Assembly: GCA_002687935.1 (NCBI GenBank)
Contig: NZBN01000007.1
Location: 5,030-69,029, forward strand
Direction of reading: 5' to 3'
DNA from: Methanobacteriota archaeon
GTDB lineage: Archaea; Undinarchaeota; Undinarchaeia; Undinarchaeales; Undinarchaeaceae
DNA length: 64,000 bases
Positions 8,409 through 30,568 of the stretch are shown here, in pieces; within the stretch, counting starts at the first letter, position 1; each line of letters begins with the position of its first letter. Position numbers and translations under genes: made by a program. The notes under the pieces are model-generated. The model had not been told where the DNA came from. It ran no database searches and saw only the letters and a list, made by a program, of their open reading frames with translations.

Positions 8409-8443
8409 AGTAATTAAATGACAAAATCCCCTTTTATATATTT

Positions 8444-9307
8444 CTAATTGAGGATTATTATTATTGCTCCTGCAAGCATTATGAGAGTCCCTAACAATCT
8501 CCTTCCAATATTCTTTTCTCGGAATACGACCCCTCCAAATATTACCGCAAAGAGAACTGCGAGTCTCTTCATAGATACTACATAAGGAACTATTTCTAAG
8601 GTCATCGCAGCATTTATGAAAACAGCAGTAAGTGAAAGCACAATTCCTGTGGTCAATATCCACTTCCAAAGCTTTTTGTAACTTCCCACAAGCTTCCTTC
8701 TCCCTGTCTTTGAATAAATTAGAAAGGGTACTGCAGTTATTAGGAATATACCTGCTGAAGAAAGCATAGGGTCTGAATTAAGAACTGCAATTTTATTATA
8801 ATTCGCTGCGATACTGAAGATAAATGCAACTCCCAACATATCCAATACTCCTTTATTACTCAGAATTTGTTGTATGGGATAAAGAAGTCCCTTGTGGTCT
8901 GTAGACATATTAATCACATAAGAGCCTGATACAATCAGAACTATTCCTCCCATTCCGACATAACTTGGAAACTCTCCCAATATCAGGAAGGAAGTAGCTA
9001 TCAGAAAGAGGGGGCTGAATGACAGCATCGGCAAAGAGAGCGATATATCTGTCGTTTTCAGAGTCCTGAAATAGAGGGCAACTGCAAACGTATTGAGAAT
9101 CCCTGTTACAATAATTGAGGAATAGAATTGCCCTCCAATCACGGGAAGTCCGCTGACAAATGAAGAGATAAAGAGTATTACAGAACCTGAGAGAAAAATT
9201 CCGCCTGCCAAAACTTGAAGGTCCTCCTTTTTTACAAGCTTTTTTATTAGAGTATAGTAAATCGCTTCAAAAAATGCTGAAAATATCGCCAGTAGGTACC
9301 AGTACAT
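8444..9307 (-). CDS. EamA/DMT-superfamily permease (10 predicted TM segments).
   Basis: Duplicated 5-TM EamA-like hydrophobic pattern. Confidence 0.6.
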   Translation of the reverse strand: MYWYLLAIFSAFFEAIYYTLIKKLVKKEDLQVLAGGIFLSGSVILFISSFVSGLPVIGGQFYSSIIVTGILNTFAVALYFRTLKTTDISLSLPMLSFSPLFLIATSFLILGEFPSYVGMGGIVLIVSGSYVINMSTDHKGLLYPIQQILSNKGVLDMLGVAFIFSIAANYNKIAVLNSDPMLSSAGIFLITAVPFLIYSKTGRRKLVGSYKKLWKWILTTGIVLSLTAVFINAAMTLEIVPYVVSMKRLAVLFAVIFGGVVFREKNIGRRLLGTLIMLAGAIIIILN

Positions 9308-12738: not shown

Positions 12739-13566
12739 TCACAACCAGTCAAAAAGACCACTGAGTTTATCTTTCATTTTCTCAAGAAAACCCTTTGCCT
12801 GAGCTTTAGTCTCTTCTTCAGCAGCCTTCTTGGCAAGTTCCTCTACTTTTGTTGAAACCTTATCAGCAATTTCAGTAAGTTTGCTGTTGTCCTGTGTTAC
12901 TTCCTCTGACTGCTTCCATTCTATTGAAAGATTTGAAAATGATTCTTCATCAAGACCGTTGCACACTACGGTTTCTCCTGATACAAGACAGCTATTAGGC
13001 TGGGCATCTGTTATTACTGTTCCTTTTGGAATTGTAAGTGAATAAGATATTGCTCCTATCTTAAGTTCCGAACTTTCTATTACAGTTCTTACTCCGGTTC
13101 CTGTAATATTCCCTATAATGTCTGAGGGCTGTACCCGCAGTTTTCCATCCCCTGCCTTGGAAACTGTTGCACCAGTCTCAAAGGAGACATTCAAAATATA
13201 ATTTGTTTCATAACTTGTCATCTCAAGCCCTTTTCTAAAAATAATTCCTAGCTCAGCAGAGCTAAGTCCTTTATCAAGCTCATAATCACTTGGCATCATA
13301 TTCATTGCCAGTTCTCCATACTGGTCTTTCAGAACAAGATTTCCTATATCTCTCGTTCCGTATTGCATACTGGCTCTTGTAAGCTGTCCTTCGTCGGAAG
13401 CTCCGGCAGAGCATTTAAAATTATATACAATATCTACAAAAAGCCTGTTAGTGTATTCGCTATTTATCCCAATACTCTCTACAGAACAGCGTTCATCAAG
13501 AGCGGCATAAGCCTGTCCTGACAAGACAATTGTGCAAATTAAAATTCCAAAAAAGATTCGCTTCAT
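12739..13566 (-). CDS. Secreted hypothetical protein (signal peptide, C-terminal amphipathic helix).
   Basis: MKRIFFGILICTIVLSGQAYA signal peptide. No known domain. Confidence 0.5.
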   Translation of the reverse strand: MKRIFFGILICTIVLSGQAYAALDERCSVESIGINSEYTNRLFVDIVYNFKCSAGASDEGQLTRASMQYGTRDIGNLVLKDQYGELAMNMMPSDYELDKGLSSAELGIIFRKGLEMTSYETNYILNVSFETGATVSKAGDGKLRVQPSDIIGNITGTGVRTVIESSELKIGAISYSLTIPKGTVITDAQPNSCLVSGETVVCNGLDEESFSNLSIEWKQSEEVTQDNSKLTEIADKVSTKVEELAKKAAEEETKAQAKGFLEKMKDKLSGLFDWL

Positions 13567-13590: not shown

Positions 13591-13598
13591 TATATAAA
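13591..13598 (-). promoter_or_regulatory. TATA-box candidate for the leaderless secreted-protein gene ending at 13566.
   Basis: TATATAAA lies about 25-32 nt upstream of the start codon. Confidence 0.3.
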
Positions 13599-13616
13599 TT
13601 GACTGCAAGGCAAAAT

Positions 13617-13644
13617 TTAAGACATATTTAGACATTTGTCTTAA
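13617..13644. promoter_or_regulatory. Inverted repeat TTAAGACA-N12-TGTCTTAA in the divergent intergenic region upstream of lrp. It is flanked by AAATTTAAGA(C/T)A direct repeats.
   Basis: Perfect 8-bp arms read directly from the sequence. Candidate Lrp operator. Confidence 0.4.
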
Positions 13645-13697
13645 AATTTAAGATATCTATCTTAAATTTTCTACTTTTGCCTTAATATTTCCAAAGA

Positions 13698-13705
13698 TTT
13701 ATATA
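13698..13705 (+). promoter_or_regulatory. TATA box (TTTATATA) about 27 nt upstream of the lrp ATG, implying a leaderless transcript.
   Basis: Archaeal BRE/TATA spacing relative to the ATG at 13729. Confidence 0.45.
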
Positions 13706-13728
13706 CTATCATAGAGTTTTTAAGAGAT

Positions 13729-14220
13729 ATGACTAAGCTTGACGAGAAGGATTGTATAATCCTCAATATGCTACAGGAAAACTGCAGAGTCTCTCTTACA
13801 GATATGGCAAAGCGAGTAGGTCTTTCTGTTGATTCTGTAAAAAAGAGAGTTAAAAAAATGGAGAACTCCAAAATATTCTATCCTCGCGTTCAAATAAGAC
13901 CGCGTCATCTTGGTTTCGAGAACATTGTAGATGTCAAAATAAAACTTCATAATTACACTTCTGACGAACTAAGCGCTTTCGTAAAGTTCCTGAAAGATAA
14001 TCAACAAGTCCCTGAAGTCTTCCTCGTTTCAGGGGAGTGGGATTTGTCTCTAGTTATTATGGCAAAAAACTCTGAAGACCTTGGGGAGCTTACTGCCTCT
14101 ATCAGAAAGCGCTTCGGAAACATAATTAGGGAATGGTCAGAGTCTCTTACGACAATTGCTCATAAGTTCGAGACCTATGACATGCTCGAGCTGATGGGAC
14201 ACAGGAGTGGAAAAGAATAA
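13729..14220 (+). CDS. lrp: Lrp/AsnC family transcriptional regulator, first gene of the nonulosonic-acid operon.
   Basis: N-terminal HTH (ILNMLQENCRVSLTDMAKRVGLS) plus a RAM domain. Its stop overlaps the next ATG by 1 nt (TAATG). Confidence 0.8.
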   Translation: MTKLDEKDCIILNMLQENCRVSLTDMAKRVGLSVDSVKKRVKKMENSKIFYPRVQIRPRHLGFENIVDVKIKLHNYTSDELSAFVKFLKDNQQVPEVFLVSGEWDLSLVIMAKNSEDLGELTASIRKRFGNIIREWSESLTTIAHKFETYDMLELMGHRSGKE

Positions 14221-15155
14221 TGAAATTAATATTTTTCGGACTTGGTTCAATAGGGGAGAGGCAGGCCAGACTTCTTCAGGATAATTTTGAGCACGAGCTC
14301 TATGCTTTCAGGTCAGGAAAAAATTCTGAGAAAAACAAACTCGGTATTAAAGAAGTTCACACTCTAGAGGAAATTGAAAAAATCAATCCTGATGTCGCCT
14401 TTATCACAAATCCGACTAAGCTTCATATCTCAACAGCTCTTCAGTGTGCAGACCAAGGAATGAGCCTTTTCATAGAGAAACCACTTTCGTCAAGCAAAGA
14501 AGATGTTCAGAAGTTAATGGACACAGCAAATTCAAAGAAACTTTCTCTTTATGTCGCATATTGCATGCGCTTTCATCCTGTAATAAAGTGGCTCAAAGAG
14601 CATCTGAAAAACAACAAGCCTCTACATACAAGCGTTATGGTATCTTCCTATCTTCCAAATTGGAGAGAAGGGATTGACCATCTGACTCACTACAGCGCAA
14701 TAAAAGAGTCTGGTGGTGGAGTTCTCTTAGAGCTTTCACACGAGCTGGACTATCTTTACTATCTCTTCGGAACTCCAACTCTGATTGAAGCAGTTTCATC
14801 AAAAGCTGGAAGTGTAACTACTGACGTTGAAGACTTTGCAGATATACTTCTCAGTTTCAGCGGAAATCTTAATTGCAATTTGCATATGAACTTCCTCAGC
14901 AGGCTGGACAGGCGTGAGATGATTCTTGATTTTGAGGATCACACTGTTGTAGCCAACCTTGCAGAAAGTAAAGTAACAATTCTGTCTGACGGGGAAGCTG
15001 AATTAAAGAAATTCGCCTTTGAAAGAGACGACATGTATCTTGAACAGCTCAATTATTTCTTTGACAATCTCAATAATCCTGAAATTATGAACGGTCCTGA
15101 CGAATCTTCCAAGTTTCTGAACACTTTAATGGAAATAAAGGAGGCTGTAAAATGA
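14220..15155 (+). CDS. Gfo/Idh/MocA-family NAD(P) oxidoreductase (PtmF-like).
   Basis: N-terminal Rossmann fold. Sits in the ptmF-ptmB-ptmA-like order. Confidence 0.7.
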   Translation: MKLIFFGLGSIGERQARLLQDNFEHELYAFRSGKNSEKNKLGIKEVHTLEEIEKINPDVAFITNPTKLHISTALQCADQGMSLFIEKPLSSSKEDVQKLMDTANSKKLSLYVAYCMRFHPVIKWLKEHLKNNKPLHTSVMVSSYLPNWREGIDHLTHYSAIKESGGGVLLELSHELDYLYYLFGTPTLIEAVSSKAGSVTTDVEDFADILLSFSGNLNCNLHMNFLSRLDRREMILDFEDHTVVANLAESKVTILSDGEAELKKFAFERDDMYLEQLNYFFDNLNNPEIMNGPDESSKFLNTLMEIKEAVK

Positions 15156-15859
15156 TACTGCTAACAGTCTGTGCTCGAGGCGGTTCAAAAGGAGTAAAAA
15201 ACAAAAATATCCGTGAGATAGCAGGAAAACCGCTTATTGCCCATACTATAGAAGTCGCAAAAAAATGGGGAAAGGCTGACAGAATTGTCTGCTCTACAGA
15301 TTCTGAAGAAATCGCAAAAGCAGCCAGAGATGCCGGAGCTGAAACGCCTTTTATGAGACCTTCTGAGCTTGCAACAGATGAGGTAAGTAAAATGGATGTC
15401 ATAAGGCACGCTGTGGGGGAGGCTGAAAAACAATACGGGGAACGCTATGACCTAATTGTTGATCTTGATGTAACAAGTCCCGTGAGGACTAGCAAAGATT
15501 TGGATTCATGTCTCAAAATATTCCAGGAAAACGAAGTGGACTCGGTTTTCTCTGTTACAAATGCAAGAAAAAGTCCTTATTTCAATATGGTTGAACTAAA
15601 TTCTGATGGCTACGCACACCTTTCCAAAGAGCCTGTATCTCCAATAGTCAGAAGACAGGATGCACCCGAAGTTTATGATATGAATGCATCAATCTACTTT
15701 TACAAAAGGGAATTTCTGATGAATCCGGAAACAGAATCTCCGATGTCAGAAAAGTCAGCAATTTATGTTATGGATGACATTTCCTCTGCGGAAATAGATT
15801 CCGAACTTGACCTGGCATTTCTCGAATTCCTGATTGAAAAAGGAGAGGTATCATTATGA
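15152..15859 (+). CDS. Acylneuraminate cytidylyltransferase family (CMP-nonulosonic acid synthetase, NeuA/LegF/PtmB-like).
   Basis: GGSKGV P-loop-like motif and the CMP-NeuAc synthetase fold. Confidence 0.8.
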   Translation: MILLTVCARGGSKGVKNKNIREIAGKPLIAHTIEVAKKWGKADRIVCSTDSEEIAKAARDAGAETPFMRPSELATDEVSKMDVIRHAVGEAEKQYGERYDLIVDLDVTSPVRTSKDLDSCLKIFQENEVDSVFSVTNARKSPYFNMVELNSDGYAHLSKEPVSPIVRRQDAPEVYDMNASIYFYKREFLMNPETESPMSEKSAIYVMDDISSAEIDSELDLAFLEFLIEKGEVSL

Positions 15860-16635
15860 CGGATTATATGAAAAAATTCAGCCTTGACGGAAAAACTGCC
15901 GCAGTTTTCGGAGGTCTCGGTCTAATTGGAAGGGAAATAGTAAATTCCCTAAGTCAAGCAGGAGCTAAAGTTCTCTTAATAGATATTGATGAGGAACAAG
16001 GACACAAAACTGCTGAAGAACTTGGTGCAGAGTTCATTGAGCTGGATATAACTGATATAGAAAGCTACGATGAAAAAATTTCTTCTATCTGGAAAAAGCA
16101 GGGACAGGTCGATATTGTTGTCAATACTGCATACCCAAGAACTGAAGACTGGGGCGACAAGTTCGAAGATGTAAAGTCAGAATCATGGCGAAAAAATGTT
16201 GATATGCAGATGAATTCCTACTGTCTTCTCACAATAAAATTTGCCGAGTTAATGAAAGAAAATGAAGTCAAAGGAAGTATAATCAATTTAGGTTCAACTT
16301 ATGGAGTTCTTGGAGCAGACTTTGATGTATACAAAGGAACAGATATGACTTGCCCTCCTGCCTATGCAGCGATAAAAGGGGGAATTATAAATTTCTCGAG
16401 GCACGCAGCTTCCTATTACGGAAAACACGGAATCCGTGTTAATGCTCTCTGCCCTGGAGGAATTTTTGACAATCAAAATCCAGAGTTCGTAAAAGCTTAT
16501 GAAAACAAAACTTCCCTTAAAAGAATGGGAAATCCCGAGGAAATCGCATCAGCCGCAGTTTTCCTTGCATCTGACGCTTCTTCATACATAACAGGAACTG
16601 CCTTCATGGTAGACGGCGGGTGGACTAGCATATGA
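15856..16635 (+). CDS. Short-chain dehydrogenase/reductase (PtmA-like).
   Basis: TGxxxGxG cofactor site and a YxxxK active site (YAAIK). Confidence 0.75.
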   Translation: MTDYMKKFSLDGKTAAVFGGLGLIGREIVNSLSQAGAKVLLIDIDEEQGHKTAEELGAEFIELDITDIESYDEKISSIWKKQGQVDIVVNTAYPRTEDWGDKFEDVKSESWRKNVDMQMNSYCLLTIKFAELMKENEVKGSIINLGSTYGVLGADFDVYKGTDMTCPPAYAAIKGGIINFSRHAASYYGKHGIRVNALCPGGIFDNQNPEFVKAYENKTSLKRMGNPEEIASAAVFLASDASSYITGTAFMVDGGWTSI

Positions 16636-17399
16636 GCAAGAAGGCAAGAGTAATCGCAAGACTTGATGTAAAGGGACCTAATGTAATAAAAGGCGTTCAG
16701 CTTGAGTGCCTCCGAATCGTCGGGAAGCCCGGAGAGATGGCGGAGAAATACTATCTACAGGGAGCAGACGAACTCATTTACGTCGATATAGTTGCCAGCC
16801 TCTACGGTCGTGACAATCTTCTCGATATAGTTAACAAGGCATCTGATAAAATTTTCATTCCCTTCACCGTCGGAGGAGGCGTCAGAACTCTTGAGGATAT
16901 CTGTGAGTTTCTAAAAGCGGGTGCAGATAAAGTTGCAATTAATACAGCAATAACAAAAGATCCCGAACTAGTAAAAAAAGGAGCACGAATGTTTGGTTCT
17001 CAGTGCATAGTCGCTTCAATAGAGGCAAGGAAAATCGGCGAAGGTAAGTGGGAAGCGCTTACTGACAATGGTAGAGAAACAACAAGTCTTGATGTTGTAG
17101 AGTGGGCAAAAAAACTTGAATCCCTCGGAGCCGGCGAAATTCTCCTCACTTCCGTAGATATGGAAGGGACTCAGAAAGGTCTCGATACAGAACTTATCCG
17201 CAGTGTTACTGATGTAGTATCAATCCCAGTAATAGCCTGCGGCGGAGCGGGAAATTCTGATGATGTTCTTGACTGTATCAAAAAAGGAAAAACAGACTCA
17301 ATTGCCGTCTCTTCAATATTACACTTTGACAAAGAAACAATCCCTAAAATAAAATCCACACTGAATAATGGCGGAATTGAGGTGAGGACTCTTGACTGA
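16632..17399 (+). CDS. HisF-like cyclase subunit (WbuZ-like), acetamidino-sugar module.
   Basis: HisF (beta/alpha)8 signatures. Lies within a sugar operon, not a his operon. Confidence 0.75.
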   Translation: MSKKARVIARLDVKGPNVIKGVQLECLRIVGKPGEMAEKYYLQGADELIYVDIVASLYGRDNLLDIVNKASDKIFIPFTVGGGVRTLEDICEFLKAGADKVAINTAITKDPELVKKGARMFGSQCIVASIEARKIGEGKWEALTDNGRETTSLDVVEWAKKLESLGAGEILLTSVDMEGTQKGLDTELIRSVTDVVSIPVIACGGAGNSDDVLDCIKKGKTDSIAVSSILHFDKETIPKIKSTLNNGGIEVRTLD

Positions 17400-18069
17400 A
17401 ACTGATGTAAGTATAATTGACTATGGTCTCAACAATCTGAAAAGTGTTTCCAAAGGTTTTGAAAAGATAGGACGAAGTTCTAAAGTCGTTGATACTCCTG
17501 AAGAAGTCCTTTCTGCAAAATGTTTGGTTCTTCCGGGAATTGGCGCATTCGAAGACGGAATGAATGGTCTGAAGAAGAGAGCTCTCATCAATCCAATCAA
17601 GCAAAAAGTCTCTGAAGGAACTCCGTTGTTTGGTATTTGCCTTGGAATGCAGATGCTCTTCACTGAAAGCGAGGAATTCGGGCTTCACAAAGGTCTGGAC
17701 TTGATAAAAGGCAGAGTTATAGCATTCAAGCCTCCGGGAGAGTTGAATCTTGACTGGTATAAAGTTCCCCACATGGGCTGGAATGAGATAATTACTCCGG
17801 AAGCTTCCGACTGGAAGGGAACTTTCCTTGAAGAAACAAAAGAAGAGACAAATGTATACTTCGTTCACTCATTCTACCCAATCCCTGAGGATAAAGGGCT
17901 GATTCTCGCTAATACTGAACACGGGAAGCAGGTTTTTGCTTCTGTTGTAAAAAAAGGAAGCATTATCGGAACACAGTTTCATCCTGAAAAAAGCGGCGAA
18001 GTCGGTTTGGCAATGCTGAAATCTTTCTGTGATATAAACAATATAGGTAAAGGAGGAACAGAAAAATGA
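17392..18069 (+). CDS. HisH-like class I glutamine amidotransferase (WbuY-like).
   Basis: GICLGMQ catalytic Cys and HPEKS motifs. Confidence 0.8.
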   Translation: MTETDVSIIDYGLNNLKSVSKGFEKIGRSSKVVDTPEEVLSAKCLVLPGIGAFEDGMNGLKKRALINPIKQKVSEGTPLFGICLGMQMLFTESEEFGLHKGLDLIKGRVIAFKPPGELNLDWYKVPHMGWNEIITPEASDWKGTFLEETKEETNVYFVHSFYPIPEDKGLILANTEHGKQVFASVVKKGSIIGTQFHPEKSGEVGLAMLKSFCDINNIGKGGTEK

Positions 18070-19295
18070 GTGAAAAACTGGAGGCATATTTCGGTCTTCC
18101 AAATGAGGTTAAATTCTGTACAAGATGCGTAATTTCTAACCAGCGACCCAATTCTTCAATTGAGTTCAAACATACAAGGGAATCAAAGAAAAAAACAATA
18201 AATTTTGACAGCGAGGGTGTCTGCGATGCCTGCAGACATGCAGAAAACAAATACAACAAAATAGACTGGACGAAACGCGAAGAAGAGCTTTACACACTTC
18301 TTGACAAATACAGAAAAAATGACGGCTCCTATGATGTACTTGTTCCGGGGAGTGGTGGCAAGGACAGTGTCTTCGCATCCCATGTCCTCAAGTACAAATA
18401 CGACATGCATCCACTCACTATAACTTGGGCTCCGCATCTCTACACAAACTATGGCTGGGATAATTTCCAGGGATGGATTCACGAAGGAGGTCTAGACAAT
18501 ATGCTATTCACTCCAAATGGAAAAATCCACAGGCTTCTTACAAGACAGGCTTTCAAAAACTTACTCCACCCTTTCCAGCCTTTTATATTCGGTCAAAAGA
18601 ATCTAGCTCCAAAAATTGCTGAAAAGTTTGACATTCCTCTCATTTTCTACGGTGAGAATGAGGCTGAATACGGAAATCCAATACAGGACACATCAACAGC
18701 GGAAAGAGACTGGAAGTATTTTGCTTCCAATGAGCTCGAAAGCACCTATCTCGGCGGAACAAGTATTCAGGACCTTGTTGAAAAACACGGTGTAACGATG
18801 AATGATTTGGATATCTATATGCCTGCGGATCCTAAGATGGTCGAAAAGAAGCAAATAAAAGTCCACTATCTTGGATACTATCTAAAGTGGATTCCTCAGG
18901 ATAACTACTATTATTCTGTTGAACACACAGGCTTCAAACCGAATGACCAGAGAACTGAAGGTACTTATTCGAAATACAATAGTATAGATGATAAAACTGA
19001 TCCCTACCATTACTGGACTACTCTAATAAAATTCGGAATCGGCAGAACAACGTATGATGCGGCTCAGGAAATAAGAAACAATCATATAAACCGTGATGAG
19101 GGCGTCGCATTGGTCAAGAGATTTGATCAGGAATTTCCAACTCGTTATCTCAAGGACTTCCTAGATTACATCAGCATGACTGAGGAAGAGTTCTGGGAGA
19201 CAGCTGACAAATTCCGGTCTCCTCACATTTGGAAGAAGGAAAACGGTGACTGGAAGCTCAGGCACACAGTTTGGAAGGGAGGTACTGACGACTAG
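18066..19295 (+). CDS. N-acetyl sugar amidotransferase (PseA/WbuX/PtmG family PP-loop enzyme).
   Basis: SGGKDS PP-loop and an N-terminal CxxC...CxxC zinc ribbon. Confidence 0.75.
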   Translation: MSEKLEAYFGLPNEVKFCTRCVISNQRPNSSIEFKHTRESKKKTINFDSEGVCDACRHAENKYNKIDWTKREEELYTLLDKYRKNDGSYDVLVPGSGGKDSVFASHVLKYKYDMHPLTITWAPHLYTNYGWDNFQGWIHEGGLDNMLFTPNGKIHRLLTRQAFKNLLHPFQPFIFGQKNLAPKIAEKFDIPLIFYGENEAEYGNPIQDTSTAERDWKYFASNELESTYLGGTSIQDLVEKHGVTMNDLDIYMPADPKMVEKKQIKVHYLGYYLKWIPQDNYYYSVEHTGFKPNDQRTEGTYSKYNSIDDKTDPYHYWTTLIKFGIGRTTYDAAQEIRNNHINRDEGVALVKRFDQEFPTRYLKDFLDYISMTEEEFWETADKFRSPHIWKKENGDWKLRHTVWKGGTDD

Positions 19296-20416
19296 TGATA
19301 AAAATAAGAGATCGCGAACTTGGAACTGAAAAACCTGTCTATATAATTGCAGAAGCAGGTGTTAATCATAATGGAAGTATTGAACTCGCAAAGAAACTAG
19401 TTGATGCAGCTGCAGAAGCAGGTGCGGATGCTGTAAAATTCCAGACCTTCAGAGCCGAGCTTATTGTGACTGAAGATGCAGACAAGGCAGAGTATCAGAA
19501 AAAAGATTCAGATGAAAGCCAGTTCAACATGCTCAGGAATCTGGAACTTTCAGATGAAGATTTCATGGAGCTGAAAGAGTACTGCAATACTAAGAAGGTA
19601 GAATTTCTCTCAACACCACATTCAGGTGAGTGGAGTGTTAATCTTCTGGAAGAGCTCGGAATCTCTGCATATAAAATTGGTTCAGGGGACCTCACAAATA
19701 TACCTCTACTCAAATATATCGCAAAACTTGGTAAGCCTGTTATAATTTCCACTGGAATGGCGACTCTGGACGAGATAGAGGAAGCAAAGGAGTCAATAAA
19801 TTCAGAGGGAAATGATAATTTAATTGTACTTCACTGTACCACAATGTACCCCTGCCCTGAAGGAAAGGTCAACCTGAGGGCGATGCAGACAATTCTGGAA
19901 AAGACAGAAAATCTTGTAGGTTATTCGGATCATACAAATTCAATAGAGGCCTCAATAATTGCAACCTGCCTTGGTGCTTCTCTCATAGAAAAACACTTTA
20001 CACTTGACCAGGATATGCCTGGTCCTGACCATGCGTCTTCAATTGAACCTGACGAGCTTGAAGAGCTCATAAGAGCTATTCGCTTTGTCCGTAAAAATAA
20101 CATACAAAATCCCTCAGAGGCTTTTGACGCTCTCAACAGCCAGGGCTACTCATTGAATTCCAGTCTAATCGAAACAATATTAGGAAGTCCTGAAAAAGTT
20201 CCTGACGAAAAAGAGCTAGAAATATCAAAAGTAGCAAGAAAGAGCATAGTCGCAAGGAAATACATAAAATCTGGAGAGGAACTTACAAGCAAAAATATTG
20301 GAATTCTTCGACCAGGCGAGGGTCTTCATCCTCGGCACTTCCCAGAGCTTCTTGGAAAACAAGTAGTTCGTGATATAAAGAAAAACGAATATCTTCTCCT
20401 GGAGGATGTAAAATGA
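19295..20416 (+). CDS. Nonulosonic acid synthase (NeuB/LegI/PseI family) with C-terminal SAF domain.
   Basis: N-terminal TIM-barrel NeuB motifs (IIAEAGVNHNGS). Confidence 0.85.
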   Translation: MIKIRDRELGTEKPVYIIAEAGVNHNGSIELAKKLVDAAAEAGADAVKFQTFRAELIVTEDADKAEYQKKDSDESQFNMLRNLELSDEDFMELKEYCNTKKVEFLSTPHSGEWSVNLLEELGISAYKIGSGDLTNIPLLKYIAKLGKPVIISTGMATLDEIEEAKESINSEGNDNLIVLHCTTMYPCPEGKVNLRAMQTILEKTENLVGYSDHTNSIEASIIATCLGASLIEKHFTLDQDMPGPDHASSIEPDELEELIRAIRFVRKNNIQNPSEAFDALNSQGYSLNSSLIETILGSPEKVPDEKELEISKVARKSIVARKYIKSGEELTSKNIGILRPGEGLHPRHFPELLGKQVVRDIKKNEYLLLEDVK

Positions 20417-21546
20417 GAAAAATACTTTATGTCACTGGGAGTCGGGCAGAATATGGTCTTATGCAGTCAAGTCTTAAACTAATTGACAGCGATTCCGAAC
20501 TTGACCTACATATCGTGGCAACTGGAATGCACCTTATGCCAGAATTCGGAAACACAATCACTGATGTGGAGCACGACGGATTCAAACTTCATACAATTGA
20601 TTCAATTTATTCAGATGACAGCAAGGAAGCAATGGCACACTTTGCCGGAGAATTCCTCTCAAAATTTGTAGATGCTCTTAAAAAAATAAATCCGGATATA
20701 ATTCTTCTTCTTGGGGACCGTGCTGAGATGCTCTCAGCTGCAGTTGCAGGTGCTTATATGTCAATTCCTGTAGCACATATTCACGGAGGAGATGTAAGTT
20801 CAACAGTGGATGAAATGGCAAGGCACGCTATAACAAAACTCTCTGAAATTCATTTCGCTGCAACAGAATCAAGCGCTGAGAGAATAAGGAAGATGGGGGA
20901 ACTCCCGTTTAATATACATCTTGTCGGTGCTCCTGGTTTGGATTCAATACTTAATGATATTCTTCCTTCAAAAGAAGAAGTTTTCAAAAGCCTCGGACTG
21001 AATTCTTCTGAAAAAACAGTCCTAATTGTCCAGCACCCAATTACTCTTGAGGATGGAAAATCTGAAGAGCATATGAGGGCAACTCTTGAAGCTGTAAAAG
21101 AGGAAGGGTTTCAGGTTATTGTTGTTTATCCTAACGCAGATGCCGGAGGTCGGGAAATGATAAGTGTCATCGAAGAGTATGAAGGAACTTTCAATATTTT
21201 TAAAAGCATGGAACGGTCACTTTTCCTCAGCCTTATGAAGAACTCAGATTTAATTATTGGAAACTCAAGCTCGGCTCTGATAGAGGCGCCTTCCTTTGGA
21301 ACTCCTGCTGTCAATATAGGTTCTCGGCAGAGTGGAAGAGAGCAGTCTGACAATATAATTGATTCAGGGTATAAGAAAGATGAAATAATCTCTGCAATCA
21401 AAAAAGCACTTTCTCCTGAGTTCATTAAAAAAGCAGAAAAGTGCGAAAATCCATATGGCGACGGAAAGTCAGGAGAGCGCATAGTAAAAATACTAAAAGA
21501 GGTGGAGCTTGGTAGGGAACTTCTTGACAAGAAAATAGCATACTAA
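20413..21546 (+). CDS. UDP/GDP-N-acetylglucosamine 2-epimerase, hydrolysing (NeuC/LegG-like).
   Basis: Epimerase_2 fold with the typical N-terminus (YVTGSRAEYG). Confidence 0.8.
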   Translation: MRKILYVTGSRAEYGLMQSSLKLIDSDSELDLHIVATGMHLMPEFGNTITDVEHDGFKLHTIDSIYSDDSKEAMAHFAGEFLSKFVDALKKINPDIILLLGDRAEMLSAAVAGAYMSIPVAHIHGGDVSSTVDEMARHAITKLSEIHFAATESSAERIRKMGELPFNIHLVGAPGLDSILNDILPSKEEVFKSLGLNSSEKTVLIVQHPITLEDGKSEEHMRATLEAVKEEGFQVIVVYPNADAGGREMISVIEEYEGTFNIFKSMERSLFLSLMKNSDLIIGNSSSALIEAPSFGTPAVNIGSRQSGREQSDNIIDSGYKKDEIISAIKKALSPEFIKKAEKCENPYGDGKSGERIVKILKEVELGRELLDKKIAY

Positions 21547-21944
21547 TGGAAAAAGACGACAGATTTGATGAATGGAAGCCTCCTAAGATAAAGGACGGAG
21601 AACTCACTAAGTGGAATTGGATGGTTCAGAATGTGGAAGGTCTAAAACTCGGGAAGAAGACAGATATTGGAGTCTTCACTTACATAAATGCAAAACACGG
21701 CGTTGAAATACAGGACAATGTACAGATTGGCTCACACTGTTCAATTTATTCAGAATCTACAATTGACGAAAAATCCGGAAAAGTGATAATCGGAGAAAAT
21801 GCCAGAATAGGTTCTCACAGTCTGATAATGCCAGGAGTTATAATTGGAAAAAATGCAGTCATCGGGGCATTTTCCTTTGTTACAACTGATGTGCCTGACA
21901 ATTCTCTTGCATACGGAATTCCTGCAAAGGTGGTTAAAAAATAA
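21546..21944 (+). CDS. Hexapeptide-repeat (LbH) sugar N-acetyltransferase (LegH/PglD-like, short form).
   Basis: Isoleucine-patch hexapeptide repeats. Confidence 0.65.
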   Translation: MEKDDRFDEWKPPKIKDGELTKWNWMVQNVEGLKLGKKTDIGVFTYINAKHGVEIQDNVQIGSHCSIYSESTIDEKSGKVIIGENARIGSHSLIMPGVIIGKNAVIGAFSFVTTDVPDNSLAYGIPAKVVKK

Positions 21945-23081
21945 ATGAAAGTCCCTCTCTTCAAGACTTATTGGAATCAGGAAGACATAGAGTCAGTGAA
22001 AGCGGTAATCGAGCGAGGTACTTATTGGGCAACCGGTCCTGAAATAGAAGAATTTGAGAAGGAAATTGCCGAGTTCGTTGGAGCAAAATACTGCCTGGCT
22101 TTTAATTCCGGAACGTCGGCTCTCCATACACTCTTACTGGCTCATGATGTAAAGGAAAAAGAAGTCATAATTCCGTCTTTCACATTCATTGCAACAGCAA
22201 ACGCTGTCGTACTCGCCGGAGGAATTCCGGTTTTTGCAGAAACAGAAGCAGAAACCTACGGTCTCGACGCAGAAGATGTAGAATCACGCATTACAGAGAA
22301 GACTGCCGCAATATTAAATCTGGATTTTGGAGGATTCCCTGCAAGAGACCACGAAAAACTCAGAGAAATTGCAGACCGTCATAATATCCTTTACATAGGA
22401 GATTCAGCCGAGTCCCTCGGTTCAAAAACGAAGGGAAAATTACTCGGTTCAATTGCGGATTCTACAATTTTCAGTTTCTGTCAAAATAAAGTTGTCAGCA
22501 CAGGAGAAGGCGGTGTTCTTATCACTAATGATGAATCAGTTTATGAAAAATCAAAACTCATTCGTTCCCACGGACGTGTAGAGTTAGCTGAGGATTATTT
22601 CTCAAGTACAGAAGACAATGACTACATTCAAATCGGCTACAATTACAGAATGCCGACAATGTGCGCAGCTCTCGGACTTTCTCAAATGAAGAAAATTTCT
22701 GAAAACATTAAAATGCGAAGGTCTAATGCAGACTTTCTGAATGAAGGTCTTGGAAAAATCGAGCAGGTAAAAACCCCGACACTCATCGAAGGCGATTTCC
22801 AGGTTTATCAGATGTATACAATTCAACTTCCGAACCAGGAAACCAGAGATGCTCTTCAGAGTCATCTTACTGAGCAGGGAATTAGTACAAAAGTTTATTT
22901 CAATCCAGTTCATCTCAAAACAGTTTACAAAAATATGGGTTGTTCAGAAGGGGACCTACCCAAAACCGAGACACTCTCTGGAAAGGTTCTAACACTTCCA
23001 ATGCATCCATCACTTACTGAGGCTGAAATGGAGTATATAATAAATTCAGTGGAGGATTTTTTCAAAAATGTCGAAGCTTGA
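21945..23081 (+). CDS. DegT/DnrJ/EryC1-family PLP-dependent sugar aminotransferase (LegC/PseC-like).
   Basis: Class IV-fold aminotransferase motifs. Confidence 0.8.
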   Translation: MKVPLFKTYWNQEDIESVKAVIERGTYWATGPEIEEFEKEIAEFVGAKYCLAFNSGTSALHTLLLAHDVKEKEVIIPSFTFIATANAVVLAGGIPVFAETEAETYGLDAEDVESRITEKTAAILNLDFGGFPARDHEKLREIADRHNILYIGDSAESLGSKTKGKLLGSIADSTIFSFCQNKVVSTGEGGVLITNDESVYEKSKLIRSHGRVELAEDYFSSTEDNDYIQIGYNYRMPTMCAALGLSQMKKISENIKMRRSNADFLNEGLGKIEQVKTPTLIEGDFQVYQMYTIQLPNQETRDALQSHLTEQGISTKVYFNPVHLKTVYKNMGCSEGDLPKTETLSGKVLTLPMHPSLTEAEMEYIINSVEDFFKNVEA

Positions 23082-24468
23082 GGATATGTTAATAGACCAG
23101 TCAACTTCCATAAAGGAGGCAATGCGGATTATAGACAGAGCCGGAGTAAGAATGGCTCTTATTGTCGATGACAATCAAAAATTAAAGGGGATAGTTACTG
23201 ACGGAGATATACGGAGAGGAATAATTAAAGGAGCCGGAAACGAGGACGAAGTTTCAACTGTCATGAATAAAGCTCCATTAACTACAAAAGAGAATGTTCC
23301 TCACCAAGATGTTTTGGATTTACTCAAGACTAATAAGGTTCTAGGAATCCCAGTTCTTTCAGAAAGCGGAGAAATTATTGATATGCTTCTTCTGGAAGGA
23401 AATGAGGTTCTCTCATACACAAAACACGAAATAGAAAAGAAGCACCTAAGAAAAATACTCGTCATCGGTGGAGCCGGATATATCGGCTCCGTTCTTGTCA
23501 GAAAGCTTCTTGACAAAGGATACAAAGTAAAAATTCTCGACAATTTCCTCTATGGGGATGAGTCTTTATCCTCAATAGAATCTGACGAGCTCACACTTCT
23601 CGAAGGGGACACCAGACATATAGAAGATGTTACAGAAGCCGTCCAGGATGTTGATGCTGTTGTTCACCTTGCTGAGCTTGTAGGTGATCCTGCTTCAAAT
23701 CTAAATCCAAAATTTACCCAGGATATAAACTACCTTGCAACACGTAATGTTGCCTCTGTCTGCAAACACTTCCACCTCAATAGGCTGGTATATGCTTCAT
23801 CTTGCAGCGTTTACGGAGCATCAGAAGAAGGAAAGCTCCTTACAGAGGAATCCTCTCTCAATCCTGTTTCTCTTTATGCTAAAATGAAGATAAGCTCTGA
23901 GAAAGCCCTTGTTGAAATGAAGGATGACAGTTTCAGACCGACAATTCTGAGACTGGGAACTGTTTTCGGTCCTTCACCACGCCCAAGATTTGACCTTGTC
24001 GTTAATCTTCTCACTGCAAAGGCTGTAAGAGACGGAAAAATAACAATTTTCGGTGGAGATCAGTGGCGTCCGAATGTTCACGTTGAGGACGTTGCCGAAT
24101 CTATTATTTCTGTATTGGAAGCCCCTCTTGATAAAGTAGGTGGAGAGGTTTTCAATGTCGGGTCAGAGAAAAATAACCATACTATAAATGAGCTTGGAAA
24201 TTTTGTCAAAGGAAAGGTTCCTTCTGCAGAACTAATAATAGAAGAAAAAGATGTTGACAAAAGGGATTACAAAGTAGATTTCACAAAACTCCGCGAAGGT
24301 CTTGAACTGAGCCTGGAAAGAACTGTGGATGAAGGAATATCAGGAATAATTTCCTTCCTGGAAGACAACAAAGATATCAATTACGAAGATTCAAAATACA
24401 GTAATGTCAAATTCCTCGAACAGGGAAAGCTAACAGAATTCTTTTCCAACGGGGATACAAAAACATAA
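23068..24468 (+). CDS. Tandem CBS domains fused to an NAD-dependent sugar-nucleotide 4,6-dehydratase/epimerase (LegB/PseB-like).
   Basis: N-terminal ~120 aa CBS pair, then a GGAGYIGS Rossmann motif and YAKMK catalytic dyad. Confidence 0.75.
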   Translation: MSKLEDMLIDQSTSIKEAMRIIDRAGVRMALIVDDNQKLKGIVTDGDIRRGIIKGAGNEDEVSTVMNKAPLTTKENVPHQDVLDLLKTNKVLGIPVLSESGEIIDMLLLEGNEVLSYTKHEIEKKHLRKILVIGGAGYIGSVLVRKLLDKGYKVKILDNFLYGDESLSSIESDELTLLEGDTRHIEDVTEAVQDVDAVVHLAELVGDPASNLNPKFTQDINYLATRNVASVCKHFHLNRLVYASSCSVYGASEEGKLLTEESSLNPVSLYAKMKISSEKALVEMKDDSFRPTILRLGTVFGPSPRPRFDLVVNLLTAKAVRDGKITIFGGDQWRPNVHVEDVAESIISVLEAPLDKVGGEVFNVGSEKNNHTINELGNFVKGKVPSAELIIEEKDVDKRDYKVDFTKLREGLELSLERTVDEGISGIISFLEDNKDINYEDSKYSNVKFLEQGKLTEFFSNGDTKT

Positions 24469-24490: not shown

Positions 24491-24730
24491 ATGCCAGTTA
24501 TGGCACGAAAGTCCAAAAAATCTAAAGAAGAGCAAAGAGTAATGTTCGCAGTGGAAGAGATTGTTCTCAGTTTTGTAGGCTCTCTTGTGCTCGCTTTCGG
24601 TTTTGTCGTTATCTCGACAGCTGAAGGAAGCACTTTCTGGGCTAACTTTGTACTGGGTCTCTTTGTGGTCTGGCTAGGATTACTCCTCTTTACTGTACCT
24701 TTAATCAGAAAGATTGAAGAGCTCATGTAA
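24491..24730 (+). CDS. Small hypothetical membrane protein (2 TM).
   Basis: ORF with two hydrophobic helices. No homology recognised. Confidence 0.35.
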   Translation: MPVMARKSKKSKEEQRVMFAVEEIVLSFVGSLVLAFGFVVISTAEGSTFWANFVLGLFVVWLGLLLFTVPLIRKIEELM

Positions 24731-24828: not shown

Positions 24829-25479
24829 ATGAGAGTTCTAACGGAGATACAGTCTAAAAAACTCCTGAAAAAACATGGTATAAAGACTACTACGCAGATT
24901 TTTGCAGCATCTCCTCAGGAAGCTGCCACAGCTGCATCAAAGCTTGGGTTTCCTCTTGTATTGAAAATAGTGTCTCCTGACATAACACATAAGACGGAAG
25001 TTAATGGAGTCAGAGTCGGAATAAAAACTGTGCCTGAAACTATAGAAGCATACCGTTCTCTAATTTCTTCAGCAAGAAAGGCGAGACCTAAAGCCGTCAT
25101 TGAAGGAGTTTCAATCCAGGAAATGGCGGATGGCGTCGAAATAATAATCGGCGTTTCAAGAGACTCACAATTCGGACCTGTTATTATGCTAGGAACTGGC
25201 GGAATTTTTGTAGAAGTTTTGAAAGATATATCATTCAGAGTTGCTCCGATAAGCGAGAATGATGCTCTTGAAATGATTTCAGAAATAAAAGGAAATACAC
25301 TTCTAAAAGGTGTTCGCGGAAAAAAACCCAGCGATATAAAATCTCTTGTTTCAATGCTATTGAAAACATCAAAACTTGCAATGTCTGATGAAAGTATAAT
25401 GGAGATAGATATGAATCCTGTTTTTGTAAGTTCCTCTGGAGCAATGGCAGCTGATGCTAGGGTGGTGCTTGACAAATGA
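24829..25479 (+). CDS. acdB: Acetate--CoA ligase (ADP-forming) beta subunit, ATP-grasp domain.
   Basis: ATP-grasp_5-like sequence, typical ~215 aa size. Confidence 0.7.
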   Translation: MRVLTEIQSKKLLKKHGIKTTTQIFAASPQEAATAASKLGFPLVLKIVSPDITHKTEVNGVRVGIKTVPETIEAYRSLISSARKARPKAVIEGVSIQEMADGVEIIIGVSRDSQFGPVIMLGTGGIFVEVLKDISFRVAPISENDALEMISEIKGNTLLKGVRGKKPSDIKSLVSMLLKTSKLAMSDESIMEIDMNPVFVSSSGAMAADARVVLDK

Positions 25480-26150
25480 AGACTGTAAAGGAAAAAATAC
25501 ACATAAAATTTTTCAGAACATCGGGAGTTCTGATAGCGGGCCTTATAATTTTCTTTGGCTTGCTGGCTTCCGTTCAGGGATATAACATAGAAAAAGTTAC
25601 TCAAAAAGATATACTTCTTGACGCACTTCAGCCTATATTTTCAGATCTGCTTGAAGAAGAATGCTCTGAAGCAGGAGAATTCAAAGATTCCTGCTTTGAG
25701 CAGGCTGGAGCTTCCATAAATCTCTCTGAAAAGATGGACGGTCTGTACACAGCTTCGGTTAAAATTCCAATAATCGGTGCCATAAGCATGTATTCCCTTA
25801 ATTCAATGGCATCTGCTTCTCAGGGAAGTGGTATTATGGTGGCAATCGCCGGAATAGCTATTGCCTTCTTTCTTCTCAAAGATAAACTAAGAATACTTAA
25901 AATTCTAGGGGGCATTTTTGTCTCACTCTCTGTAGCGACTTTTGGGGGGGCCTTCCTTATAGAAAAAGCAATTCTTCCACGACTTCTTTCCGGACAACTC
26001 TCTGCAGTCGTCTCATTGGCAGATTTCTTCAGCTCCCAGCTCCTCAACTTCCAATTTTTTGTCGGAAAGCTCTTCTTTATTGCAGGTCTTTCTCTCTATG
26101 CCTCATACTTCCTCATCAAAAAATATCTATTTTCGGAGGTCGGTAAATGA
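25476..26150 (+). CDS. Hypothetical integral membrane protein.
   Basis: 4-5 hydrophobic segments. Start overlaps the acdB stop. Confidence 0.45.
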   Translation: MKTVKEKIHIKFFRTSGVLIAGLIIFFGLLASVQGYNIEKVTQKDILLDALQPIFSDLLEEECSEAGEFKDSCFEQAGASINLSEKMDGLYTASVKIPIIGAISMYSLNSMASASQGSGIMVAIAGIAIAFFLLKDKLRILKILGGIFVSLSVATFGGAFLIEKAILPRLLSGQLSAVVSLADFFSSQLLNFQFFVGKLFFIAGLSLYASYFLIKKYLFSEVGK

Positions 26151-27322
26151 GCCCTATACTGTCGTCTGCTGAAAGCTCAATAATAGAATCTCCAATAAGG
26201 AGAATAGCCCAGCTTCTTGAAAAAGCAGGAGCTGACCCTGATATAATAAGTTTCGGTGGCGGAGCTCCGAGCCTTGCTCCCCCAAAAGAAGTTGTTAATG
26301 CAATGATATCTTCTCTGAAAAAAGATGCCTTTAAAGCAGTATCTTACACATCAACAAAGGGTCTTCCAAGCTTGCGCGAAAAGATAGCAGGAGATCTTAC
26401 TCGGAGTGGTGATGCTGTTGAGCCGAGCCAAATTGCTCTTACAACTGGAGCAACTGGGGGACTTTTTACGGCACTTGAGGACATAATTAACCCAGGAGAA
26501 GAAATAGTAGTTTCTGACCCAACTTATGTCGGTTACGAAGGTCCAGCTCTTATTGACCGGGCAAAAATTCGTCGTGTTCCTGTCAAAAAAGAAAATGATT
26601 TCCAACTTACTCCAGATTTAGTAAATGAAGCCATTACAAAGAAAACGAAGGCCATTATCATACTCTCCCCTGACAATCCAACAGGAAGAATTCAGAAAAA
26701 GAAAAATGTCAAAGGGATAGCTGACATAGCTAAGGATAATAATCTCTGGATTGTATCTGATGATACTTACAAAGACATAATCTATGAAGGAAGCCACACA
26801 TACGTTCACAAATATGCCCCTGAAAATACAATAACTGCATGCGCCTTTTCAAAATCTTCTTCACTCCCTGGTCTCCGTCTTGGCTATGTATACGGTCCAA
26901 AAGAGGCGATAAATGGTATAACGAAATTAAGTCAGTATATTATGCTCTGTCCAAACAAACTCAGCCAGACTGCAGCTGAGAGTTTCTACTCTGTCAAAGA
27001 TTCGTATTTAAAAGAAAGTGTTATTCCTGTTTACAAGAAAAAGCGCGAGGTAATGGGTGAAATGATAAAAAAACACCTTCCTATCTGCAATTACGTAAAG
27101 CCACACGGAGCATTTTATTATTTTATTGATTTGTGTGATTCAAAACTTGATGATGAAGAATTCTGCAATCGCCTTCTTGAGGAACGGAAAGTCGTGGCAA
27201 TTCCCGGGAAATATTTTGGAAATGAAGGTAAAGGTCATATAAGGCTGACCTTCGTTTCAGAAAGCGAAAAACGCATAGAAGAGGGAGTTCTTAAAATAAA
27301 AGATTTCATGGAGGAACTATGA
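26147..27322 (+). CDS. Class I/II aminotransferase (aspartate aminotransferase family).
   Basis: PLP-Lys motif FSKSSSLPGLRLGY. Confidence 0.75.
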   Translation: MSPILSSAESSIIESPIRRIAQLLEKAGADPDIISFGGGAPSLAPPKEVVNAMISSLKKDAFKAVSYTSTKGLPSLREKIAGDLTRSGDAVEPSQIALTTGATGGLFTALEDIINPGEEIVVSDPTYVGYEGPALIDRAKIRRVPVKKENDFQLTPDLVNEAITKKTKAIIILSPDNPTGRIQKKKNVKGIADIAKDNNLWIVSDDTYKDIIYEGSHTYVHKYAPENTITACAFSKSSSLPGLRLGYVYGPKEAINGITKLSQYIMLCPNKLSQTAAESFYSVKDSYLKESVIPVYKKKREVMGEMIKKHLPICNYVKPHGAFYYFIDLCDSKLDDEEFCNRLLEERKVVAIPGKYFGNEGKGHIRLTFVSESEKRIEEGVLKIKDFMEEL

Positions 27323-30524: not shown

Positions 30525-30568
30525 ATGAACTAAAAACTGTTTCTCCGCTGTTATATATCTTTCAGCTA

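Follow-up and report, generated by a model that had tools for sequence, protein, structure and literature searches.

An Lrp-headed operon for a probable legionaminic-type nonulosonic acid in an archaeon of the Undinarchaeota

Gene content, conservation and host of the operon

This work deals with a twelve-gene operon for a CMP-activated nonulosonic acid that is predicted in a 64,000-nt stretch of archaeal DNA (contig NZBN01000007.1 of assembly GCA_002687935.1, positions 5,030 to 69,029), referred to here as the window. It comprises twelve open reading frames (ORFs) on the plus strand at 13729-24468, the same twelve that had been named in an initial annotation of this DNA. The first encodes an Lrp-family transcription factor and the last a CBS domain pair fused to a short-chain dehydrogenase/reductase (CBS-SDR). 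Adjacent ORFs abut or overlap throughout, by 1, 4, 4, 4, 8, 4, 1, 4, 1, 0, and 14 nt in gene order, a layout which suggests that the twelve genes form a single transcription unit. For comparison, 94 further loci (numbered with the prefix L) were fetched, which together with the window amount to about 1.65 Mb, and the neighbourhoods of NeuB-type genes were compared over 81 loci. An independent contig (L081), whose NeuB protein is 87% identical to that of the window, carries all twelve genes in identical order and with identical flanks on both sides. Since genes and flanks recur in this way, the arrangement is real and conserved and not due to chance, and the operon-like structure described in the initial annotation was confirmed.

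The G+C content of the operon (0.40-0.42) lies within the range of the window (0.38-0.43), and a recent horizontal acquisition was rejected for want of a compositional signal. Scans of the twelve-gene block found seven internal terminators compared with 9.6 expected and 27 sigma-70 promoters compared with 22 expected; both numbers represent background and neither model is applicable to archaea, so that the only outcome is that the operon contains no obvious internal hairpin terminator. The other genes of the window are archaeal and include those for Nop56/58, fibrillarin, diphthamide synthase, mevalonate-pathway kinases, IDI2, and a UbiA prenyltransferase. An identical NeuB protein is on deposit as MAF89348.1 (“Euryarchaeota archaeon”) and MDP7260357.1 (“archaeon”) as well as in the Tara collection, and the cluster of NeuB proteins at 87% identity includes Candidatus Undinarchaeum marinum and Undinarchaeales proteins. 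The host is an Undinarchaeota (DPANN) archaeon close to Candidatus Undinarchaeum.

Protein families were assigned by Pfam and NCBIfam profile searches with curated cutoffs, which reproduced all twelve initial assignments; curated NCBIfam cutoffs were passed by the NeuB, NeuC, WbuX, and HisH proteins. Directly after the regulator gene follows a Gfo/Idh/MocA oxidoreductase gene in a PtmF-like position (14220-15155, +). Its product has matches to GFO_IDH_MocA (50 bits) and to the C3 domain, reaches no NCBIfam equivalog, and is 27-34% identical to the products of the PtmF-position genes of Campylobacterales and other loci. The next gene (15152-15859, +) encodes a CMP-nonulosonate synthetase of the NeuA/LegF/PseF family (CTP_transf_3 84 bits, cutoff 22.6; PseF model 136 bits, cutoff 205.7), which shares 48-54% identity with NeuA homologues from Campylobacterales and Thorarchaeota loci. 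It is followed by a classical, PtmA-like SDR gene (15856-16635, +; adh_short_C2 162 bits), whose product does not reach the PtmA equivalog (PRK09186 231.7 bits, cutoff 255; FlagModPtmA 153.5 bits, cutoff 350). The order of this triad (14220-16635) had been compared with that of the Campylobacter legionaminic acid locus from the beginning, and it was indeed found again in the Campylobacterales legionaminic acid (Leg) loci L026, L039, L043, and L067; in the table of the Plesiomonas Leg locus, the triad is present in reversed order (PMC4481668).

Three genes of an acetamidino-forming amidotransferase come next. The HisF-like cyclase subunit of the WbuZ/AglZ type (16632-17399, +; His_biosynth 214 bits) stays below the cutoffs of hisF (278.6 bits, cutoff 294.6), WbuZ (268.7, cutoff 299.7), and AglZ/HisF2 (192, cutoff 310). 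The HisH-like glutaminase subunit (17392-18069, +) starts with TTG in an 8-nt overlap (GATase 77 bits; TIGR01855 197.3 bits, cutoff 105.4), and the N-acetyl-sugar amidotransferase of the WbuX/PseA family (18066-19295, +) is recognised by TIGR03573 (388.5 bits, cutoff 203.2) with no match in Pfam. Such a trio of PseA/WbuX, HisH, and HisF genes lies beside NeuB in 12 of the 81 loci. A role of HisF and HisH in histidine biosynthesis was set aside because of the unmet hisF cutoff, the translational coupling to WbuX, and the recurrence of the trio beside NeuB.

Behind the NeuB-type synthase gene, the operon continues with a hydrolysing NDP-sugar 2-epimerase of the NeuC/LegG type (20413-21546, +; TIGR03568 440.6 bits, cutoff 235.9), which reaches 115.9 bits on the model of the non-hydrolysing WecB (cutoff 210). 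The following gene (21546-21944, +) encodes a short left-handed beta-helix (LbH) N-acetyltransferase of 132 aa (Hexapep 55 bits). It matches only the C-terminal part of the NeuD/PglB/VioB profile (68.7 bits, cutoff 160.8), is devoid of a PglD-type N-terminal domain, and shares 57-71% identity with the protein that many archaeal and Candidate Phyla Radiation loci encode between NeuC and DegT. The penultimate product is a pyridoxal phosphate-dependent aminotransferase of the DegT family (21945-23081, +; DegT_DnrJ_EryC1 346 bits), from which sugar C4 aminotransferase activity can be inferred; it scores 282.5 bits on PseC (cutoff 423.5) and 228.7 bits on LegC (cutoff 420). A GlmU-like gene combining an NTP-transferase and an LbH domain is located elsewhere in the window (41460-42683) and could provide UDP-GlcNAc.

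The synthase, the entry enzyme and the class of sugar

The nonulosonic acid synthase gene (19295-20416, +) starts with GTG and encodes a protein of the NeuB/LegI type with matches to Pfam NeuB (299.6 bits) and SAF. The protein passes TIGR03569 (NeuB_NnaB; 424.1 bits, cutoff 399.65) and fails the PseI model (277.4 bits, cutoff 340.25). An identity as KDO8P or DAHP synthase, which would have been at odds with the initial annotation, was rejected, as the DAHP models yield at most 27 bits compared with 424 for NeuB_NnaB. Among PDB sequences, SpsE scores 246.6 bits, N. meningitidis NeuB (NmNeuB) 195 bits, and PseI 172.9 bits. In a neighbour-joining tree of the TIM-barrel domain, the window NeuB pairs with two Woesearchaeota sequences (bootstrap 74) and falls into a large group with the synthases of Campylobacterales loci that have the leg/ptm gene order of C. 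jejuni. The barrel is 53% identical to that of the Campylobacter concisus synthase, and the NeuB genes of this group have LegB/LegC/PtmE/PtmF/PtmA-type genes as neighbours. The window NeuB is placed apart from the PseI pair, from the SpsE group, and from NmNeuB (identity 36-42%; 36-41% for PseI and NmNeuB); SpsE of B. subtilis clusters with the synthases of L086 and L087, apart from the window NeuB. The tree was used only for placement outside PseI, SpsE, and NmNeuB and next to Woesearchaeota. The homologue is thus, by its sequence, a genuine nonulosonic acid synthase that groups with LegI-context enzymes, as anticipated in the initial annotation. Since LegI-context synthases also pass TIGR03569, this model cannot split neuraminic from legionaminic acid synthases and gene context must decide.

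Some peculiarities of NeuB proteins were observed in passing. The NeuB proteins of the window and of L001 share an insertion of about 35 residues (residues ~268-305) between TIM barrel and SAF, which splits the match to the hidden Markov model (HMM). In uncultured archaea and bacteria, NeuB occurs fused to an SDR (660 aa; L088 8205-10187), to CTP_transf_3, or to Epimerase_2 (proteins P0006, P0039, P0067, P0099, and P0107). Furthermore, the Woesearchaeota cluster L029 carries, besides a normal NeuB gene, a second and very divergent NeuB-like gene (8245-9285) right after its Lrp gene, with 23% identity of its product to the window NeuB.

The gene context points to a diamino sugar, because the NeuC, LbH, DegT, and SDR genes form a coupled block, the Gfo-NeuA-SDR order is that of Leg loci, and the HisF/HisH/WbuX trio stands beside NeuB. 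The block of NeuC, LbH, DegT, and a 4-keto-forming SDR is retained in sister DPANN clusters.

The presumed entry enzyme of the pathway is the CBS-SDR (23068-24468, +), in which a CBS pair resembling the N-terminus of PtmE (residues 1 to ~120; 52 bits) precedes an extended SDR (residues 128 to ~440; Epimerase 166 bits). Its first 137 residues are 27-34% identical to the N-termini of proteins of about 350 aa whose genes stand between those of NeuC and the Gfo protein in the Leg loci of bacteria; these proteins have a nucleotidyltransferase domain at residues 122-342, which corresponds to the PtmE architecture. The CBS-SDR therefore appears to carry the regulatory head of PtmE without its catalytic body. 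Between the SDR part and the LegB-type proteins of these Leg loci, identity is only 24-29%, and the models rank in the order GalE (117 bits), RmlB (95), LegB (89.5, cutoff 475), and PseB (39.5). On the catalytic strand, dehydratases have T-S-E (LegB type), T-D-E, or T-D-K (PseB/PglF/Pen type), compared with S245-C246-S247 in the CBS-SDR, T-N-S in Cj1427 of C. jejuni, and T-C-M in Pal of B. thuringiensis. The protein thus has neither the Thr/Ser-x-Glu nor the Thr-Asp-Lys strand of the LegB/PglF-type dehydratases of Leg pathways, and the position of the RmlB-type acid is taken by Cys246 (Asn in Cj1427). Among 120 listed homologues with at least 45% identity, Cys246 is found in 119, Ser247 in all 120, and the Y270/K274 pair is invariant.

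In the sister Lrp-led DPANN clusters L004, L005, and L029, a PglF/PseB-type dehydratase gene directly follows DegT. Across the NeuB clusters, the CBS-SDR is the sole extended SDR in six and occurs together with a LegB-type gene in one, and a DegT gene was always near the CBS-SDR gene in the loci examined. Neither a canonical dehydratase nor a further extended SDR was detected among the proteins scanned in the 64-kb window. The CBS-SDR is presumed to occupy the 4-keto-forming slot, and from its sequence it cannot be told whether C6 is deoxygenated as well. The family comprises at least 120 sequence clusters from DPANN archaea, Omnitrophota, Parcubacteria, and others. In Woesearchaeota and Omnitrophota loci (L082/L083 609-5940 and L084 1-3681), CBS-SDR genes are located near AMP-binding, LuxE, LuxC, and acyl carrier protein-related genes together with DegT, neighbours that hint at amino sugars which are N-acylated there, beyond N-acetylation.

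Taken together, the operon probably constitutes a single Lrp-controlled unit that makes a CMP-activated 5,7-diamino, acetamidino-bearing, legionaminic-type nonulosonic acid. The order of the steps was adopted from established Leg pathways (PMC6137143, PMC4481668). The CBS-SDR would oxidise NDP-GlcNAc at C4, with or without removal of the 6-hydroxyl, DegT would aminate C4, and the short LbH enzyme would N-acetylate the new amine. The NeuC-type enzyme would then free the nucleotide and epimerise C2, and the NeuB-type synthase would condense the hexose with phosphoenolpyruvate. The glutamine-dependent WbuX/HisH/HisF enzyme would turn one N-acetyl into an acetamidino group before the NeuA-type enzyme forms the CMP-sugar. 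As in bacterial Leg loci, PtmF-like and PtmA-like oxidoreductases accompany the cytidylyltransferase; in C. jejuni these enzymes are reportedly assigned to the precursor branch. The CBS pair on the entry enzyme might confer allosteric, nucleotide-type control on pathway entry.

Several points weigh against this reading, above all the nature of the CBS-SDR. LegB orthologues of the comparison loci obtain 507-520 bits on the very model on which the CBS-SDR reaches 89.5, and the dehydratase Glu/Asp is absent from all 120 listed homologues. Its best match in PDB sequences is Cj1427 (E 3.8e-46), which is also the best match in fold (Foldseek; PDB 6VO6/6VO8, TM 0.90-0.93, 34-35% identity, CBS-SDR model with pLDDT 92), followed by UDP-GlcNAc 4-epimerase and, well below, by RmlB-type dehydratases. 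Cj1427 is the GDP-D-glycero-D-manno-heptose C4-dehydrogenase of C. jejuni, which performs no dehydration and in which alpha-ketoglutarate recycles the bound NADH (PMC10680097). Because the CBS-SDR fails every dehydratase test (HMM scores, catalytic residues, and nearest structures), a 9-deoxy product such as legionaminic acid (5,7-diamino-3,5,7,9-tetradeoxy-D-glycero-D-galacto-nonulosonic acid) and the “complete Leg-type pathway” of the initial annotation are unproven, and its “CBS-fused 4,6-dehydratase” could not be upheld; to judge from sequence and modelled fold, this enzyme is not a canonical dehydratase. The entry enzyme might accordingly be a C4-dehydrogenase only, which keeps the 6-hydroxyl and leads to a 5,7-diamino-3,5,7-trideoxy sugar with a 9-hydroxyl, i.e. 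a 7-amino neuraminic-type sugar. This would also fit L093, in which the CBS-SDR gene is followed by an RmlC/FdtA-type cupin gene, comparable to the partnership of Cj1427 with the epimerase Cj1430. However, the CBS-SDR stands in the exact slot that PglF/PseB-type dehydratases fill in the sister clusters, and the two hardly ever occur together, which suggests the same overall reaction, and the invariant Cys246 at the RmlB acid position, where Cj1427 has Asn, could act in elimination. We know of no description of a natural 5,7-diamino nonulosonic acid with a 9-hydroxyl, and we regard retention of the 6-hydroxyl as serious but unlikely.

The genes could also serve two products, with NeuC, NeuB, and NeuA making CMP-Neu5Ac and the SDR, DegT, and LbH enzymes together with WbuX/HisH/HisF making a separate acetamidino diamino-hexose for the same glycan. 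A model for this is E. coli O145, where nna genes lie beside wbuXYZ; the NeuB, NeuC, and WbuX-family proteins pass models named after O145-type genes, and TIGR03569 does not separate NeuB from LegI. Yet the window NeuB is closest to the synthases of loci with LegB/LegC-type genes, NeuC, LbH, DegT, and SDR form one contiguous, translationally coupled, and conserved block, and the operon has no glycosyltransferase or second nucleotide-sugar branch, so that such a division of labour seems improbable. A pseudaminic acid (Pse) pathway is largely refuted and very hard to maintain. It would agree with the aminotransferase and the cytidylyltransferase, which score best on PseC and PseF although both remain below cutoff, but the operon is without the PseG hydrolase and the GNAT PseH (cf. 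the reference Pse clusters L089 and L090) and has a NeuC-type hydrolysing 2-epimerase instead. NeuB fails PseI and lies outside its clade, and the CBS-SDR scores lowest on PseB.

The remaining points concern the legionaminic-type reading as a whole. Stereochemistry cannot be read from the sequence, the DegT, NeuA, LbH, PtmA-like, and PtmF-like proteins all stay under their NCBIfam equivalog cutoffs, and the backbone bootstraps of the NeuB tree are low. Among the window proteins scanned, no nonulosonate transferase, AglB, acceptor gene, or other glycosyltransferase was found. Finally, co-transcription as well as Lrp binding and the CBS ligand are inferred.

The Lrp regulator, its operator and the neighbouring genes

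The first gene of the operon (13729-14220, +) encodes an Lrp/AsnC-family transcription factor of 163 aa (HTH_AsnC-type 49.6 bits, cutoff 27; AsnC_trans_reg 32.5 bits, cutoff 25), and its stop codon overlaps the next start by 1 nt. The protein is far below the LrpA (63.5 bits, cutoff 250) and LysM (49.3 bits, cutoff 180) equivalogs and belongs to a subfamily in which at least 120 clusters were counted (52-65% identity), the majority from Woesearchaeota and Nanoarchaeota. Eleven members were examined in their neighbourhoods (window, L081, L004, L005, L029, L086, L087, L088, L092, L093, and L094), and in all eleven the gene heads an ulosonic acid cluster or lies directly beside or divergent from it. 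The Lrp gene stands at the cluster head in L004 and L029 and is divergent in L005; it accompanies Sps/Pse-like sets in L086 and L087 and a Leg-like set with a NeuB-SDR fusion in L088, while in L093 the CBS-SDR gene directly follows it. In L092 (7147-10816), Lrp heads a KDO-like cluster (CTP_transf_3, DHDPS, DAHP_synth_1, Hydrolase_3, and DUF386), and the regulator is therefore tied to ulosonic acids generally, beyond nonulosonic acids. A dedicated transcription factor had been called unusual in the initial annotation; it is real, but a recurrent DPANN feature with a conserved operator and no one-off.

The predicted operator region lies in the 162 nt upstream of the Lrp gene. Between two divergent TATA boxes, an operator array at 13612-13670 consists of two adjacent palindromes of AATTTAAGAYA half-sites, with the core GTCTTAAAATTTAAGAT at 13637-13653. 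Two inverted repeats were recorded upstream of Lrp (I3 and I5), of which I5 is a perfect palindrome of 13+13 nt, and within the 64 kb exact copies of the half-site are confined to 13614, 13645, and 13658. The motif CTTAAA-N1-2-TTTAAG is present in eight copies in the approximately 1.65 Mb of all loci, with about 0.02 expected per shuffled 64-kb window. Seven of these lie just upstream of an Lrp-subfamily gene (window 13640, L081, L004, L029, L088, L092, and L094) and the eighth (L092, 7048) between the Lrp gene and its ulosonic acid genes. L092 thus has the palindrome twice, at 5926 before the Lrp gene and at 7048 ahead of the ulosonic acid genes.

The core promoter of the operon (13675-13728, +) includes a CTTAA half-site (13678-13682), the TATA box TTTATATA (13697-13704), and TTTTTAAGA (13716-13724), which ends 4 nt before the ATG. 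The regions preceding eight Lrp genes of Undinarchaeota, Woesearchaeota, and other DPANN were aligned. All of them have an unchanged CTTAA some 12 nt ahead of TATA, the TATA region is conserved, and TTTTTAAGA precedes the ATG by 2-4 nt in every case. The spacing from TATA to ATG suggests that the operon mRNA is leaderless or near-leaderless, and the half-sites would bracket the core promoter. In the proposed mode of control, Lrp would bind the TCTTAAA-N-TTTAAGA palindromes and the half-sites flanking TATA box and start; autoregulation of its own operon through this predicted operator appears likely, perhaps together with regulation of the divergent gene. The latter (12739-13566, -) codes for a putative secreted protein of 275 aa with a signal-peptide-like N-terminus and three N-X-S/T sequons and with no match in Pfam or NCBIfam. 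It has a TATA-like box of its own (13591-13599), shares the intergenic region that contains the operator, and is conserved in L081. The gene may be co-regulated with the operon, and a link between the secreted protein and the sugar is possible.

Downstream, an ORF for a small membrane protein of 79 aa with two hydrophobic stretches (24491-24730, +) begins 22 nt past the stop of the last gene and is kept in L081 (14339-14578), with a weak DUF1761 match there. Owing to this proximity and conservation, it may be a thirteenth gene of the unit. It is followed at 24829-28701 by four plus-strand genes with 4-nt overlaps, which encode the beta subunit of an ADP-forming acyl-CoA synthetase (ATP-grasp_5), an unknown protein of 224 aa, a class I/II aminotransferase, and the alpha subunit; the synthetase subunits are thus split by the aminotransferase, an arrangement kept in L081. 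Farther away, four tRNA-Arg genes (anticodons GCG, CCT, TCG, and TCT) are found at 30450-37182 around the arginyl-tRNA synthetase gene (33702-35435, -), and tRNA-His (46281-46353) runs into the histidyl-tRNA synthetase ORF (46314-47639) at its listed start, so that in both cases tRNA genes adjoin their cognate synthetases. An isoprenoid/lipid run at 52460-57919 comprises two GHMP kinase genes, an amino-acid-kinase-fold gene of the isopentenyl phosphate kinase type, an FMN-dependent IDI2-like gene, and a UbiA prenyltransferase gene.

Relation to known systems and significance

The CMP-legionaminic acid locus of C. jejuni, which consists of legB, legC, legI, legG, ptmE, ptmF, legF/ptmB, and ptmA with ptmG/H for the acetamidino form, resembles the operon in its NeuB/LegI-type synthase, NeuC/LegG-type epimerase, DegT and LbH enzymes, in the Gfo-cytidylyltransferase-SDR triad of the same order, and in the homology of the CBS domain to that of PtmE. 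In contrast, the window operon is without LegB, judging from the score of the CBS-SDR on that model (89.5 bits, cutoff 475). It also lacks the PtmE nucleotidyltransferase domain and has the CBS part fused to a Cj1427-like SDR instead, and it differs in its WbuX/HisH/HisF trio for the amidino group, in the Lrp gene at its head, and in its archaeal host. The locus of Legionella pneumophila is presumably different again, with a membrane-associated dehydratase of the PglF type and with neither a CBS-SDR nor an Lrp-led operon. Its likeness lies in the NeuA/B/C-type enzymes and in the end product predicted here, a legionaminic acid with an acetamidino group; for the O-antigen of serogroup 1, Leg5Am7Ac made from UDP-diNAcBac is cited in a later paper (Glaze et al. 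2008, as cited in PMC6137143).

Among archaea, only Halorubrum sp. PV6 has a Leg pathway that is backed by experiments. In this organism, a Leg-type set of LegB, C, H, G, I, and F feeds an N-glycan; the genes are scattered over HrrPV6_1014-1053 and the product is 5-N-formyl-Leg (PMC6137143). Unlike the window, no amidotransferase trio, Lrp, or CBS-SDR is reported for this organism. The statement of the initial annotation that nonulosonic acids are rarely described in archaea holds for experimental work (Halorubrum PV6 and M. smithii; PMC6137143). It does not extend to sequences, since NeuB homologues are common in metagenome-assembled genomes (MAGs) of DPANN and other archaea, so that it is no surprise in itself to find a nonulosonic acid cluster in an archaeal MAG.

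Cj1427, the closest relative of the SDR domain in sequence and fold, shares with it a Ser at the position of the dehydratase Glu, but has Asn in place of the invariant Cys of the CBS-SDR family and no CBS domain, and it acts on a heptose in capsule synthesis with no aminotransferase alongside. The amidotransferase genes are arranged as in WbuX/WbuY/WbuZ and AglX/AglY/AglZ, with N-acetyl-sugar amidotransferase, HisH-like, and HisF-like genes adjacent to each other. AglX/AglY/AglZ is reportedly the acetamidino system of Methanococcus maripaludis. Whereas these systems act on hexosamines (FucNAc, ManNAc3NAcA), the trio of the window is embedded in a nonulosonic acid operon. The regulator resembles the archaeal LrpA/LysM/Ss-LrpB type in its HTH_AsnC and RAM domains, in an operator that is palindromic and roughly 15 bp long, and in the presence of sites within its own promoter, but differs in remaining far under the equivalog cutoffs and in the ties of its subfamily to ulosonic acid operons and not to amino-acid metabolism.

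The initial proposal of an operon-like cluster for a CMP-activated nonulosonic acid in an archaeon is thus supported. Bacteria (Campylobacter, Legionella) and one archaeon, Halorubrum PV6, are already known to have this type of pathway. New, as far as the searchable literature shows, are the intact operon in Undinarchaeota, an Lrp subfamily and operator tied to ulosonic acid operons across DPANN, and a CBS-SDR that replaces the dehydratase without having its catalytic residues. The literature searched contained no prior description of legionaminic or sialic-type sugars in Undinarchaeota or of Lrp in connection with nonulosonic acids in archaea, although this does not prove that none exists.

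The Undinarchaeota, a DPANN group without cultured members, have very small genomes and are thought to depend on partner cells. That a genome of this kind contains an intact operon of 10.7 kb for a sialic-acid-like sugar speaks for the importance of this sugar at the cell surface, and it names a definite molecule that could be sought in host-symbiont or virus recognition. The pair of Lrp and operator represents a rare cis/trans regulatory system that can be predicted from sequence in uncultured DPANN archaea. The CBS-SDR family is routinely annotated as “epimerase/dehydratase”, and knowledge of its chemistry would correct many MAG annotations and could reveal a new class of sugars. Most speculatively, and in our view doubtful at present, the CBS-SDR might be a regulated C4-oxidising stand-in for the 4,6-dehydratase, giving rise to an undescribed class of 5,7-diamino, 9-hydroxy, acetamidino nonulosonic acids under a DPANN-wide Lrp regulon dedicated to ulosonic acids, with TCTTAAA-N-TTTAAGA as its operator. 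If this were true, the sugar would be a prime candidate for the determinant on the cell surface through which such a small-genome symbiont contacts its host.

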